Shown here in pieces: positions 8,514 through 58,040 of a DNA stretch of 64,000 nucleotides (position 1 is its first letter; each line of letters begins with the position of its first letter). Location of the stretch: the NCBI GenBank assembly GCA_964016885.1, contig OZ024742.1, positions 14,322,001 to 14,386,000 of the forward strand. The letters are read 5' to 3'. Source of the stretch: Eledone cirrhosa. Its lineage: Eukaryota. The notes below the pieces were generated by a model that worked only from the letters and a program-made list of their open reading frames with translations, was not told the DNA's origin and ran no database searches. A program made the translations under genes and the position numbers.

Positions 8514-8889
8514 ATACACTCTGTCTAGCTCTACACCTCGACACTGAAGTGAACCTAAACATCGAGTGCTCACCCGGGTGAACCTACAGTAACTCCAAGT
8601 TACACTCCCTGGATATATATGTATATATATATGTATATAATCTTGTGACCAATTATTTCTGTTCTAGTTTGTATTAGAAAGCAATAAGTAATTAAATATG
8701 AGAGTGTTTTGATATCCATTTTAGGTCCATATACTGTTGAGAGTGCTGTGAAAGATGGTAGTGCACACTCACAGCTACTAGCTATTGGTGATTTATCACA
8801 GCTAAAATGTAAGTCTGTGACCTCTACTTTAGTATCTACTACTGACAACTACTACCTTTCATCTTTTAACCTTCAATGACATTCTATCT

Positions 8890-9225
8890 TAAATACATTC
8901 CATAGCTGGCCACCCCTACTGAAGTACAACAAACTCCATAGCTGGCCACTCCTACTGTAGTTTAACATATTCCATAACTGGCCACCTCCACTGAACAAAC
9001 TACAAAACTGACCACCTCCACTGAAGTACAACAAACTCCATAACTGACCACCTCCACTGAAGTACAACAAACTCCATAACTGACCACCTCCACTGAAGTA
9101 CAACAAACTCCATAGCTGACCACCCCCATTCAACATAAACATACTCAGCTACTCAAATTCCATAGCTGGCCACCACACAACTTTAACAAACTCCACAGCT
9201 GGCCACCACCACTGAAATTTAACAT
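8890..9225. repeat. Degenerate ~39-bp tandem repeat
   Basis: Repeated cactgaagtacaacaaactccata(a/g)ctg(a/g)ccacc units. Confidence 0.85.
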
Positions 9226-9547
9226 TCACAGCTCCCCAGTCTCTATAATTGTTGTATATTACTAATCATGGGTACCACAATAATCAGTCTCTCTTTCAAC
9301 TATTGACTTTATTAGATCTGAAGGTTGTCAATTATATATTTTATATCTACCTGACTCTCTACCTTTCAGGTTTGTCTATATTTTATCTCACATCCACCAT
9401 TAAAATGTTTCTTTTATCTTTTATCGTAACTTAATGTTGTCTCTATTATTGAAGCCGCTGTATATATGTTGATTTGAAATATTTAACATCCTACGTCAGT
9501 TTATGAATATGTCAGTAATAGAACTCTTTCTCTCTTTATTGTTAGAA

Positions 9548-9748
9548 ACATTATATTGGGACATAGTTCTATCAGTGTTCACATTATATTGGGACATAGT
9601 TCTATCACTGTTCACATTATATTGGGACACAGTTCTATCAATGTTCACATTATATTGGGACATAGTTCTATCACTGTTCACATTATATCGGAACACAGTT
9701 CTATCACTGTTCACATTATATTGGGACACAGTTCTATCACTGTTCACT
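9548..9748. repeat. 33-bp tandem repeat (~6 copies)
   Basis: Unit acattatattgggaca(t/c)agttctatcactgttc. Confidence 0.9.
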
Positions 9749-9919
9749 GTAGTTTAGTGTCTGTCTTAATTACTTTATCAATGACCTCCCAGTCTAAATA
9801 TTGTCTTAGCAACTATATATAGTGCTAAACAACTCACCAATAACTCTATAATAATAATAATTCTACTACTTATATTATATTGTCTGCTTAGCAAAGATAT
9901 TCTGAAATTATCATATTGA

Positions 9920-10150
9920 GGGTGGTGGGTCGGTAGAGCATCAGACAACATGTTTGGCAGTATTTGCTTCAATCTTTAGATTCTGACTTCAAATCCTGCT
10001 GCGGTCAACTTTGTATTTCTTCCTTCCAGAGTTGATAAAGTAGCAGTAAACTACTGGGGTGGTGGTGGTGGGGGGGGGGGGGGGGGGGGGGGTCTATGTA
10101 TTTGACTTTCCCTCACCACAAATTACTGGCCTTTAGCCTGAATTAGGAAA
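9920..10150 (+). mobile_element. Degenerate tRNA-derived SINE
   Basis: B-box-like gacttcaaatcc followed by ggtcaactttg...gttgataaa...tactgggg...ttgactttccc...ctggcctt. Homologous to copies at 15365-15560 and 21770-22157. Contains a poly-G expansion at 10068-10092. Confidence 0.65.
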
Positions 10151-10310
10151 TCCTTATTTAGTTAGTGTTAGCAAGAGTTTTGTAGAGTCCCTGCTCCAAC
10201 AATTTATAGGAGACATAATTAAATGGACACAAACATGAGTCAACAAAACACAACTAGTTTGATTTTTAGTGAACCTTTTTCATAAGGAATCACCTGAAAC
10301 TACCCTTAGT

Positions 10311-54756: not shown

Positions 54757-55025
54757 CATCATCATCATCATCGTTTAACGTCCATATTCCACGCTTGCAT
54801 GGGTTTGGACGGGAGTTTTCCCACTTGAGGCAAGAGTGGTTGTCTTGCTCGCATAGGACTGTCTGGCGGGTTTTCTACGGTTGGATGCCCTTCCTAACAC
54901 CAACTACATTTACAGTGTGGAACTGGGAGATTTTTACCATGTTACCTACACGGCCACATTACAGCGTGGACTGTGTGTTTTTTTTGTCGTGACACCTACA
55001 CGACCTCATTTGTTTCGGGCTGGAT
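54757..55025 (-). mobile_element. RTE 3' UTR fragment
   Basis: Homologous to 44768-45030 and 50260-50530. Confidence 0.8.
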
Positions 55026-55046
55026 ATACATATATATATATATATA

Positions 55047-56880
55047 TAATATAAGATCAAAAGATGGTTAAAAGAGTTCCAAGTATTTTATTATGCGCAT
55101 TTCAAAAACAAATATCATCATGGGATGATATCTGCATTCTCATCAGATAAAATAGGGAGACATGATATGAAGCTTAAAAAACACTTGTGAGCAGTAAAGT
55201 TTTAAATCAATATATGAAAAGATAAAGTAAGATGTATATATGAGATTGGGAAAAAAAGGGGGGGGGGGTAGGAAAAGGTAATGAAGAGGAAGAAAGAAAA
55301 TAAAGGAGGGTGGGGGAGGAGTATAAGAAGGAAGGATGAGAGAGGAGGAGAAATGAGTGATAGGGAGAGAGAAATAGGCTTTACAATTGAGAAAACATTG
55401 TCTCACAGAGAGAAATTAAAAAACCGTTGGAAGATAATAGATAATTTAAAAAGATTTTGAAATTAAAAGTTAATGAGGTTTATGGATGTTGATGTTTATG
55501 ATTGAAGAAAAAGGAATTAGGAATAGTATTAATTTAGGTTTATGTATTGAAGGGTTTAATAATACGTGCGTAAAAAAAGGAAAATTTATTAATATGTATT
55601 ATTAAAATTAAAATATTAACGATATTAAGGATATAATGTGAAAGAAGGAGAAGAATAAATGAGTTATGAACTTAGAGGAATTATTTAGGGTTTAAGTTTG
55701 TTTTTATGTATTGTAATATGTAAAAGTAAATAGCAGGTTTAAAACAAGCACGGAAGGAGAGAAGAAAAAAGAGAATTTAAGGAAGAAAAAATATCTAATG
55801 TCAAAAAGTATATATGTTTACAAAAATTTTCTAATGGTAATATTATTTTATATTTAAAAATATATAGTTTCTATGGCCAATAATATGAGGAAAAATGGAA
55901 AATGCTGTAGTGAGTAATAATATGAATTGAGAAGTAATTGGGAAGTAAAGGTTACAGATTAAAGATTAGAAATTAAAAAAGAAAAAAAGAAGAAAGGAAA
56001 AAGGATAAAAAGAAGAAAGATAGGGGATCACAACGACATAGAGTGAGTAAATTGTATAATATAATATACTGAAATAAGGCAGAAAGATGTAAAAGATTTG
56101 TAAAAGATATAAAAGGCTTTGAGAAAAGAAGATTTTAAACTACTTAGGTATTGAGATATTAGCTGTATACTTTATGGAATGTTCTATGGGATTTATGCAA
56201 GCAGAGCGAAAATAAATCCGTACGTCTATTTATTATAGAATTAAAATTAAATATAAAGGTAAATTTCTCGGCTAGATTACATATTCAGGATAGAGAGGAT
56301 TTCAGGTAAGGAAAGGCGTAGCAAACCTTCCTCCAAGAGATGTTATAGTTAATATTTTTGTCTTTTAAGGACCATATGAGTTCCGAGAGTGCCGTGTTAG
56401 TTCTTTTAAGTTGGTATTTAAAAGACGATTTGTGATTATAAAATCTTGCTTTAAAGGAAGTGGAAGTGGAACCGAAATAGGTAAAAGAATTAGTACCAGT
56501 TATAACCTTACATTCATACACTAAGTTTTTATCAAGACATTGGTTATTAAGAGGACATTTAGTTCTAACAGGGCAATTACAATTACGATTAGAGAAATTA
56601 ACAGAGTTATTAACAAGTGACCTAGTATTATTTATAGAAGGAATTGGATTGGAGAAGTTATTTACGATAGGTACTATAGTTTCCTGATTTAGATTGGTAT
56701 TATGAACATTCAACGGAGTTACGTTTGACGTCGTATTTAAATTTACTGAATCTAGCCTAGAGTTAACAATGACGTCGGGTTTAGTACTGCTATTATTATG
56801 ACGCTCAGTGCTGGAGGGATGTAATTTATTAATTAATATTTTATTATTGTGTTTAGAGATAATGTTAGAGATGTTGGAAT
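55047..56880 (-). mobile_element. Second Naiad-type PLE (diverged subfamily, 3' portion)
   Basis: Encodes [15 protein letters not shown]...[15 protein letters not shown]...LVY...YFG...; the pLTR ends at the same ...cttttgatcttatatta terminus as the first copy. (TA)n flanks. Confidence 0.9.
55084..55154 (-). ncRNA. Type I hammerhead ribozyme (pLTR of second Naiad)
   Basis: UAUUUUAU-CUGAUGA-GAAUGCAGAUAUCAUC(ccau)GAUGAUAUUUGUUUUU-GAAA-UGCGCA-UA^AUAAAAUA. Substitutions relative to copy 1 mostly preserve pairing. Confidence 0.9.
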
Positions 56881-57202
56881 ATATATATATATACATATGT
56901 ATATACATATATATATATACATATATACATATATATATATACATATATATATATACATATATATATATATATACATATATACATATATATATATACATAT
57001 ATATATATATACATATATATATATATACATATATATACATATATATACATATATATACATATATATATATATACATATATATATACATATATATATATAC
57101 ATATATATATACATATATATATATACATATATATATACATATATATACATATATATATACATATATATATATACATATATATATATACATATATATATAT
57201 AT

Positions 57203-57388
57203 ATAGGAATGAGTAGGACCCCGACGGCTGAGCTCAAGCCGTTTCGACGGCTAATTCTGGACTAAAATTTTAGTCCAGAATTAGCCGTCGGGGTCCTACT
57301 CGTTCCTATTACCCACTCTACTACCCTAAGTATTGAGTACTTTGGTGCGTTATGGTCCACCTGGTTCCTTACCACATTTCCTCCGTTA
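57203..57388. mobile_element. Fold-back element with hammerhead stems II and III but no CUGANGA
   Basis: Minus strand reads gacggctaattctggac(taaaatttta)gtccagaattagccgtc-GAAAC-ggct(tgagctc)agcc-GTC-ggggtcc. Tail hairpin at 57315-57338. Confidence 0.75.
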
Positions 57389-57496
57389 CATATATATATA
57401 TATATATATATATATATATATATATATATATATATATATATATATATATAATATATATATATATATATATATATATATATATATATATATATATAT

Positions 57497-58040
57497 ACAT
57501 ATAAAATCAAGGTCTAGCAAATAGAGAAAATGTTTTAAAATAAATTTTAAAAAATTTGCAGTACTTACTATATGTACCTTTACCACGGTTTCATGCTCCG
57601 AATAAACGGAAAATCCAAGCGGATTTCCATTGAGTAGGGAGCAATCTTCAGAGAGCTCTTCTCTCTCGGAGAATAGAAAATTCCCGAGTTCAAATCACAA
57701 ACTGACGCCATACAAAACCATTCCGAAATGAGAGCGAATGATAGAAGAAATAATTCTGTCTGGTGCCGTGTGGAAAGACAAAAGGCAGGGTGGACAGGTC
57801 AATATCCTGTCACTAGAAATAGCAGCAGTCCAAACGGCCAAAATGTTATCTCTACCTTAGGGGAAGATTAATAATAATAAAGTATGAATTCCTACGTGTA
57901 AAAAATACATATAAATATATATATTTTTAAAATTTATTTTAAAACATTTTCTCTATTTGCTAGACCTTGATTTTATATGTTCTGGCTTGTTAATTTATTA
58001 ACCCGCCATAGAACCACATTGGCATACGGTTGGATAATAC
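57497..58040. mobile_element. Fold-back element with minus-strand hammerhead and 3' tail
   Basis: Arms 57497-57554 and 57923-57980. Motif at 57576-57656 (-): CUGAAGA-U-UGCUCC...GGAGCA-U-GAAAC-CGUG-GUA, with imperfect stem I. Confidence 0.75.

Follow-up and report, generated by a model that had tools for sequence, protein, structure and literature searches.

Hairpin-bearing elements of the window

The window analyzed here is a 64-kb stretch of the 3.0-Gb genome of Eledone cirrhosa (contig OZ024742.1, positions 14,322,001 to 14,386,000) and contains Penelope-like elements (PLEs) whose insertions end beside a small bulged hairpin. An earlier note on this DNA had named 12 such hairpins, and all 12 sequences lie where it placed them. 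The hairpin is a real recurrent element. What is new here is that it comes as a pair, with one hairpin per precise insertion end, that the one-sided tail of the insertions equals the spacing of the pair, and that the resolved inverted insertions of one family combine an end of either kind. In what follows, the ends belonging to hairpins 1 and 2 are called site 1 and site 2. The (TA)n sequence of the window is the nesting place of many elements.

Family A is represented by a fold-back (43845..44447) made up of an inverted arm, which ends at site 1 in (TA)n, and a forward arm. On the forward strand it carries the hammerhead core of the pseudo-long terminal repeat (pLTR; 44347..44393, found by pattern search), hairpin 1 (44452..44476, with 1993 exact 30-mer copies in the genome) and a 90-nt tail (44446..44535) that runs from site 1 to site 2, the hairpin 1-hairpin 2 spacing. 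A 5'-truncated open reading frame (ORF) on the same strand (45577..47409, one in-frame stop near 46842) encodes a reverse transcriptase (RT), a CxCx5C linker and, at the C-terminus, a GIY-YIG endonuclease (EN), and continues into a 3' untranslated region/pLTR (47410..48499, hammerhead core 48401-48447) that ends at site 1 in (TA)n. A second, diverged family-A-type remnant lies on the reverse strand (55048..56815; EN part 73% identical, hammerhead core 55100-55146) and likewise ends at site 1 (55048), so the two ORF-bearing copies do share one end point (48499 and 55048), as had been claimed.

Three further families belong to the same clade. Family B has hairpin 1 at 20136..20159 (+), with a truncated upstream context and a tail ending at site 2 at about 20207, and at 57315..57338 (+), at a fold-back end, with the tail ending at about 57386-57389 (site 2). 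Hairpin 1 of family C (49233..49253, +) follows a fold-back (48881-49226, hammerhead core 49135-49181), and its tail ends at about 49303-49307. In family I, hairpin 1 spans 81 nt (36907..36987, -), the site-1 end lies at -9/-8 relative to it, and the tail ends at about 36858, 8 nt before the position of hairpin 2 in full-length copies. Family H has hairpin 1 at 49819..49844 (-) and a tail end at about 49747; one read-through copy (L252) contains the second motif with one basal mismatch. A family G fragment combines a hammerhead core (39163..39185, +, pattern search) with a hairpin (39234..39253, +) identified by covariance model and sequence, and a degenerate hairpin of the same type with a broken upper helix lies at 40284..40303 (+).

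Three additional hairpins stand at fold-back ends on the forward strand: one with a long apical insert (8518..8567, fold-back 8261-8513, tail to about 8612), a weak one (51942..51966, fold-back 51649-51937) for which no further copy occurs among the fetched loci, and one with a GUUC/GAAC basal helix (57979..58014, fold-back 57497-57980). The proposal that the hairpins mark fold-back ends needs correcting for three instances: at 20136, 39234 and 40284 the window has no fold-back end. The family D hairpin (49582..49602, +), about 75% like family C, sits in a tail-to-tail fold-back. This structure (49493-49746) has its 3' ends turned inward, the usual arrangement being head-to-head.

By their ORF features, the tested carriers are Hydra-clade PLEs. 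The label 'Naiad' given to them earlier does not fit: Naiad PLEs have an N-terminal endonuclease according to sections of PMC8557442, and the GIY-YIG endonuclease is C-terminal in both the window ORF and the full-length copies. The full-length family A element has a single ORF of 800 amino acids with RT and C-terminal GIY-YIG, the latter with a C-terminal Pfam match that is below the cut-off (E 0.0035). Families A, B, C and I have RWK-type and DKT motifs in the N-terminal part, and the window translations and full-length copies contain the CxCx5C linker and CxxC and CxH near the EN end, with no CCHH. RW, DKT, CxCx5C and CxxC/CxH are listed as Hydra-clade features in section 11 of PMC8557442. 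The nucleotide features are of the same kind, with hammerhead cores in the pLTR (by pattern, with stems appearing in the fold; the family B core is non-canonical) and insertion ends in (TA)n.

A Hydra-type ORF is linked to 5 of the 12 instances (family A 44452; family B 20136 and 57315; family C 49233; family I 36907), and recent intact ORFs occur in the same genome, many copies being 98-100% identical. The carriers had been described as unrelated elements; all those tested are Hydra-clade relatives, with proteins 32-77% identical. Hydra-clade PLE loci were also retrieved within two bacterial metagenome-assembled genomes (L180, L181), probably as host DNA binned in. Among viral contigs, a single-protein query returned no relative and an alignment query one distant locus, which was not used.

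The bulged hairpin and its recurrence

The hairpin consists of a basal GCUC/GAGC-type helix, a 2-nt 3' bulge beginning with U, a variable upper helix and a 3' ACU. It was described as RYUC / upper helix / U-H bulge / GARY and compared with 30 local dinucleotide shuffles. A scan of the window with this descriptor recovers 11 of the 12 instances, missing 40284-40303, where the upper helix is interrupted after one pair. The frequency of hits exceeds that of shuffled DNA (9 vs a mean of 0.8 and a maximum of 3; upper helix ≥4, span ≤30), and the enrichment is weaker at loose settings (upper helix ≥3, span 80; 18 vs 9.3, maximum 16). Because the motif had been defined on window instances, enrichment was retested on DNA outside the window, where it persisted in 200 kb of flank (8 vs 2.1 shuffled, maximum 5) and in 200 kb from C1-C4 (12 vs 4.0, maximum 8).

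The hairpin also marks fold-back ends outside the window. In 600 kb, the strict motif lies -8 to +20 nt from the end of the other arm in 14 of 29 fold-backs with one (TA)n-terminated arm, compared with 0/29 on the antisense strand and 33/4000 at random positions. These 14 represent about seven families, with family B supplying six; of the 15 lacking the strict motif, six are visibly degenerate or variant copies and nine have no motif at all. A covariance model trained solely on 11 metagenome sequences returned 10 hits in the window at E≤5, four of them at E<0.001, and seven of the 12 hairpins are among the 10. Own-genome copies were located by sequence patterns, a DNA-similarity search having missed a common repeat. 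Rfam gave no match at the gathering score among 150 of 194 matches listed, and the sub-threshold matches on fold-backs are microRNA-like only.

Conservation was assessed in loci retrieved with an alignment of database homologues, 78 from metagenome contigs and 3 from genome contigs, 80 being analyzed (62 nucleotide clusters). In these loci, 44 sites were picked by sequence only, with the basal helix demanded and no pairing demanded above it. With a 2-nt bulge, upper pairs 1-4 are formed in 43/44, 36/42, 30/36 and 19/28 cases (expected 32.8, 19.3, 15.1 and 10.9), and bulge lengths of 0, 1, 3 and 4 give no pairing excess at these sites. All 44 sites have U as the first base of the bulge, and most are followed by ACU on the 3' side. 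For hairpin 1 alone, counted once per cluster, the upper pairs are formed in 24/24, 21/23, 20/22 and 14/17. In 11 equal-length sequences, a covariation tool gave 96.6% pairing and a covariation of 0.516 vs 0.179 (0 of 500 shuffles), a count that kinship may inflate, although the proteins concerned are 32-77% identical (median 47%). The compensatory changes reported for the upper helix are confirmed as strong covariation, for the 2-nt bulge only. The covariance model matches 37 of the 62 outside clusters, and 83 of its 88 hits are on the sense strand.

Within the Eledone genome the basal helix varies (ACUC/GAGU, GUUC/GAAC) and the apical part reaches about 100 nt; since basal sequence and apical length both vary, the conserved part is the bulged helix junction. 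A Hydra-type family (L035:5891-5910, L032, L194, L201) has a 1-nt bulge and keeps the -6 register described below. The hairpin is conserved and covarying on the 3' side of the hammerhead, as had been noted. It was also considered as a part of the hammerhead and rejected as such: it starts 42-68 nt after the GAAA of the core, outside stem I. A metagenome element (L141:5092-5116, -) carries a hairpin that is near-identical to family A's hairpin 1 and has G-C in place of A-U as its outer basal pair. In the metagenome set the first upper pair is C-G in 15 of 18 copies of hairpin 2 and U-A in 15 of 24 copies of hairpin 1, a difference that is a possible basis for asymmetry between the two.

Hairpin pairs and insertion ends

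Full-length elements contain two hairpins, 57-138 nt apart, between the hammerhead and the start codon. All 30 hairpin loci of family A share a single second end, 84 nt beyond the start of the hairpin, and full-length copies carry the second motif just past this tail end, 90 nt after the first. A second hairpin was then predicted for other families and sought with patterns that fixed the tail end and RYUC only. It was found in family B (in all six of the loci read, out of 360 pattern hits), family C (49 hits; two of three loci read through, both with the hairpin) and family I (333 hits; 3 of 3 loci), each continuing into a Hydra ORF. Among the 37 outside clusters with a covariance-model hit, 20 have a pair, at spacings of 57-83 nt; own-genome spacings are 76-138 nt. 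The tail corresponds to the distance from site 1 to site 2, which is also that between the hairpins. In one further family, a 38-nt tail ends at the same point inside a hairpin (7-bp helix and UU) at both loci observed (L029:6327-6564, L186:2673-3050).

Insertion ends cluster beside the hairpin, as the earlier note had proposed. When junctions are scored as intervals that allow TA microhomology, at positions relative to the hairpin, 138 of 185 intervals include the peak at -6. By site, these are 35/41 and 43/47 in family A, 10/11 and 15/15 in family B, 4/4 at site 2 of family I, and 1/2, 2/3 and 0/1 at the remaining sites. Among the metagenome rows, three of seven (6 of 10 junctions) are internal TA runs rather than ends, and the four true ends all include -6. 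The AU-rich stretch noted on the 5' side of the hairpin is also present, alternating UA/AU peaking at -6,-5 (32/44 in the outside set, vs about 25% further away), which would fit a nicked (TA)n primer landing at this point. At L099 (around 1470-1500), a 5-nt unit recurs in a stutter at site 1, as if priming had been repeated or had slipped.

Taken together, we consider it likely that each hairpin is an RNA signal bound by the PLE's own protein, which fixes an internal RT start, with one priming per hairpin. The position of hairpin 2, which ends about 15-70 nt ahead of the start codon, would also suit a 5' untranslated region element for translation or auto-repression, with ends falling nearby merely through AU-richness. 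That the hairpins serve this purpose instead is hardly credible, because the ends stay in register with each hairpin to within a few bases while the spacing ranges over 57-138 nt, and do not occur at other AU-rich positions from -36 to -17, save for 15 junctions (-29) that arose artefactually from a false long-span reference placed in a hammerhead stem and were kept in the 185. The hairpins may have an additional role in translation.

The two kinds of end are not combined at random. Among the ORF-bearing family A insertions, 20 were extended downstream; their ORF arm stops at site 1 in 14 cases and at site 2 in six, so either site can start the long arm. Nine of these have an inverted upstream arm, and all nine end at the opposite site (L060 is a compound locus); under independent choice the chance of this is 0.002 or less. 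Conversely, the inverted arm is resolved in 15 of the 30 tail-bearing family A loci and in every case ends at site 1; six loci have no inverted arm and nine run off the locus. All 24 resolved inverted family A insertions thus have one end of each kind. A tail on one of the inverted pLTRs had already been noted (PMC3846280, in part); none of the literature examined connects it with a duplicated signal.

Such insertions might also arise from a single start site, if the nascent complementary DNA (cDNA) folded back and primed itself and the other hairpin stopped synthesis like a telomerase template boundary. Self-priming has been proposed (in part of PMC3846280), and it would suit the many fold-backs that are near-perfect palindromes as well as the hot spots of the fold-back junctions. 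In family A (L071-L100), 10 of the 15 resolved junctions fall 173-193 nt upstream of hairpin 1, in a zone immediately 5' of the hammerhead. We nevertheless regard this scheme as quite improbable. ORF arms end at either site, site-2 cDNAs read through hairpin 1, and both sites share signal and register. Moreover, tail and pLTR sequence missing from the neighboring truncated ORF arm is present in the short inverted arm (L043, L048), so the short arm is not a copy of its neighbor; the arms would have been templated separately, which favors two priming events over fold-back copying.

A third possibility is that the hairpin guides RNA cleavage just 5' of itself, by a host nuclease or by self-cleavage, and that ordinary target-primed reverse transcription (TPRT) proceeds from the new RNA 3' end. 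A nuclease would give a fixed offset, and the invariant helix end with its unpaired 3' ACU resembles a processing substrate. Cleavage alone would not explain one end of each kind, however, tails require an uncut hairpin 1, and in PAc, a PLE of the Poseidon clade from Anolis, the start is internal whatever the 3' extension (PMC11167929). This makes cleavage very unlikely as the source of the ends.

A proposed mechanism and its relation to known systems

Under initiation at the hairpins, the endonuclease would nick a (TA)n target on either strand. An RT unit docked on hairpin 1 would prime from one of the two strands and a second unit, on hairpin 2, from the other, each primer landing on UA/AU at -7..-5, often through 2-3 nt of pairing. 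Both cDNAs would be antisense, and a head-to-head joint between their truncated ends would produce a fold-back with a tail on one side only. As no new 3' end contains the two hairpins together, the template would have to be a tandem RNA or a hammerhead-cut, circularised one, which would regenerate the pair at the upstream pLTR-ORF junction, the one place where it survives. Circular templates have been proposed (PMC4209133, in part), and family B forms 3.5-kb tandem arrays. A dimer prediction for the first 420 residues of a family B protein, with a score of 0.00, speaks neither for nor against dimerization.

Several observations weigh against this mechanism. The L035 family yielded no second hairpin (10 pattern hits; the six read were all incidental). 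In 47 of the 185 junctions the interval excludes -6, the 15 artefactual ones among them, and other off-register ends lie at -9 to -15, for example in family C (in L023) and at site 1 of family I. For 32 of the 47 family A site-2 junctions, the target phase would leave the -6 primer end unpaired or the start shifted by 2 nt. The one-of-each count comes entirely from family A. Hairpin 2 covaries less than hairpin 1 (13/17, 8/12, 4/9), and the basal helix, as a selection criterion, receives no covariation evidence from the outside set. The model found no hit in 25 of the 62 outside clusters, many of whose contigs lack flanks, and the fold of lowest energy often differs from the bulged register (first upper pair >0.5 in 19/44). 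Local folding of the window likewise gave low pairing probabilities for the hairpin at 51942 (0.0) and the basal helix at 44452 (0.1).

The evidence that the hairpin acts as RNA is also weak on strand, with 12 G-U and 4 A-C pairs (expected 25 and 21). This leaves room for the hairpins to be read as DNA, in a single-stranded cDNA or an extrachromosomal intermediate, the GIY-YIG endonuclease cutting 6 nt from each and so resolving the intermediate, with the ends being cut sites. Sections of PMC8557442 ascribe the tail to EN-mediated resolution, the D. virilis tail is reported to be needed for EN recognition (PMC11167929), and staggered cuts would likewise yield one end of each kind. We still judge a DNA-level signal to be unlikely. 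The in vitro start sites of PAc coincide with genomic tail ends (PMC11167929), the TA/AT peak at -7..-5 is as for a primer landing site, and G-U pairs do outnumber A-C pairs.

Other PLE clades may use signals of their own. A Neptune-like family of the same genome (about 1150 amino acids, with a hammerhead as at window 31212 and 31529) has two precise ends, 56 nt apart. The Hydra-type hairpin is absent at both (4 of 4 intact junctions); each end is followed instead by an identical heptamer, a hairpin and a shared GCUAA-type word (L225:1350-1480, L226, L228, L230; window 31194-31575). One Neptune-like subfamily (L019, L194) has a compensatory change in the first hairpin. A Hydra-type hairpin seen after site 2 of the Neptune-like family in L023 was rejected, as full-length copies continue differently. 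In Naiad/Chlamys consensi, a coarse search with six short words gave no hairpin context, and in the printed 361-nt template of PAc no GCUC/UY/GAGC hairpin was seen by eye. The Hydra-type hairpin is thus not a feature of all PLEs, and the Neptune-like ends suggest that duplicated end signals may be general among PLEs, with clade-specific sequences. Other parts of the window (841-7300, 28023-35861, 52557-53045, 59989-61041, 62098-63591) hold a 39-nt tandem array, several RT/endonuclease remnants of the long interspersed nuclear element (LINE) type and another LINE-type RT ORF.

A more general form of the hairpin mechanism is that PLE integration is a programmed two-ended process, in which tandem RNA docking hairpins of a single template load two RT-endonuclease units that begin on opposite target strands, 6 nt from their hairpins, and other clades do likewise with their own duplicated signals. 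We consider the case for it evenly balanced. If it is true, a portable cassette of roughly 100 nt would direct internal initiation and both insertion junctions. PLE template choice and the inverted arms with a one-sided tail are stated open questions (PMC8557442, PMC11167929), and the hairpin pair would explain this long-unexplained tail. For these members of the sister group of telomerase RT there are now a specific cis-element supported by covariation, a register (-6), the rule of one end for each hairpin and recent, intact ORFs, so that an existing assay design could test the mechanism directly. The hairpin can also be used to annotate element boundaries and non-autonomous partners, and is a candidate compact start signal for retrotransposon-based gene writing.

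Known systems resemble the hairpin pair in part. The hepadnavirus epsilon element is a bulged hairpin that acts as an RT start signal; unlike the Hydra-clade hairpin, it is used in protein-primed synthesis from within the bulge. L1 twin priming produces inversions by two primings on opposite strands and, unlike the insertions described here, is not known to use a fixed second site. Published Hydra-clade PLEs share the protein features, hammerheads, (TA)n targets, inverted arms and tails (sections of PMC8557442), but the tails reported there are 30-40 bp and ascribed to EN resolution, compared with 57-138 nt here, and the word 'hairpin' is absent from the main text. Deposited Hydra consensi, those of a coral and a sea cucumber among them, contain the motif undescribed. 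Inspection by eye finds it clearly in Hydra-2_Amil and Hydra-2_Ajap and twice in Hydra-1_Ajap; it is partial in Hydra-1_Amil, divergent in Hydra-1_Crog and not seen in Hydra-1_Obim. Literature searches, whose coverage left out most subscription journals and Repbase reports, returned no description of the motif; none appears in the available parts of PMC7229834, PMC4209133 and bioRxiv 10.64898/2026.07.22.740005, and those of PMC2377424 contain nothing on tail or hairpin.

The stringent LINEs UnaL2 and ZfL2 resemble the proposed scheme in that their TPRT template is selected through a stem-loop to which the element's own protein binds. As described in sections of PMC4176376, that stem-loop is a single-copy, loop-specific structure located 5' of the start, and every insertion copies it. 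The Hydra-clade hairpin, in contrast, lies 3' of an internal start, is duplicated, has a free loop that can reach about 100 nt and is not copied by the event that it would direct, each end stopping about 6 nt before its hairpin. The telomerase boundary element is a template-adjacent helix with a conserved base that is bound by a related RT and sets a limit to copying, but it lies 5' of the template and stops synthesis (PMC4993307, in part). The boundary analogy drawn in the earlier note does not hold, because the Hydra-clade hairpin is 3' of the junction and site-2 cDNAs pass straight through hairpin 1.

The closest precedent is PAc, in which synthesis starts internally at two sites with the tail between them and both strands of an AT-rich target are extended, as the genomic ends suggest for the hairpin elements (PMC11167929). 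PAc also requires RNA 3' of the start and has a predicted dimer, both of which are proposals for the hairpin elements. Its start lies within an AC-rich loop, and no conserved motif is defined in the sections of PMC11167929 that describe it. Unlike PAc, the Eledone elements have a covarying signal that is duplicated, one per site, and stands in a fixed register to each end. Binding and initiation at these hairpins, if they occur, would give Hydra-clade PLEs a defined start signal for each end of an insertion.

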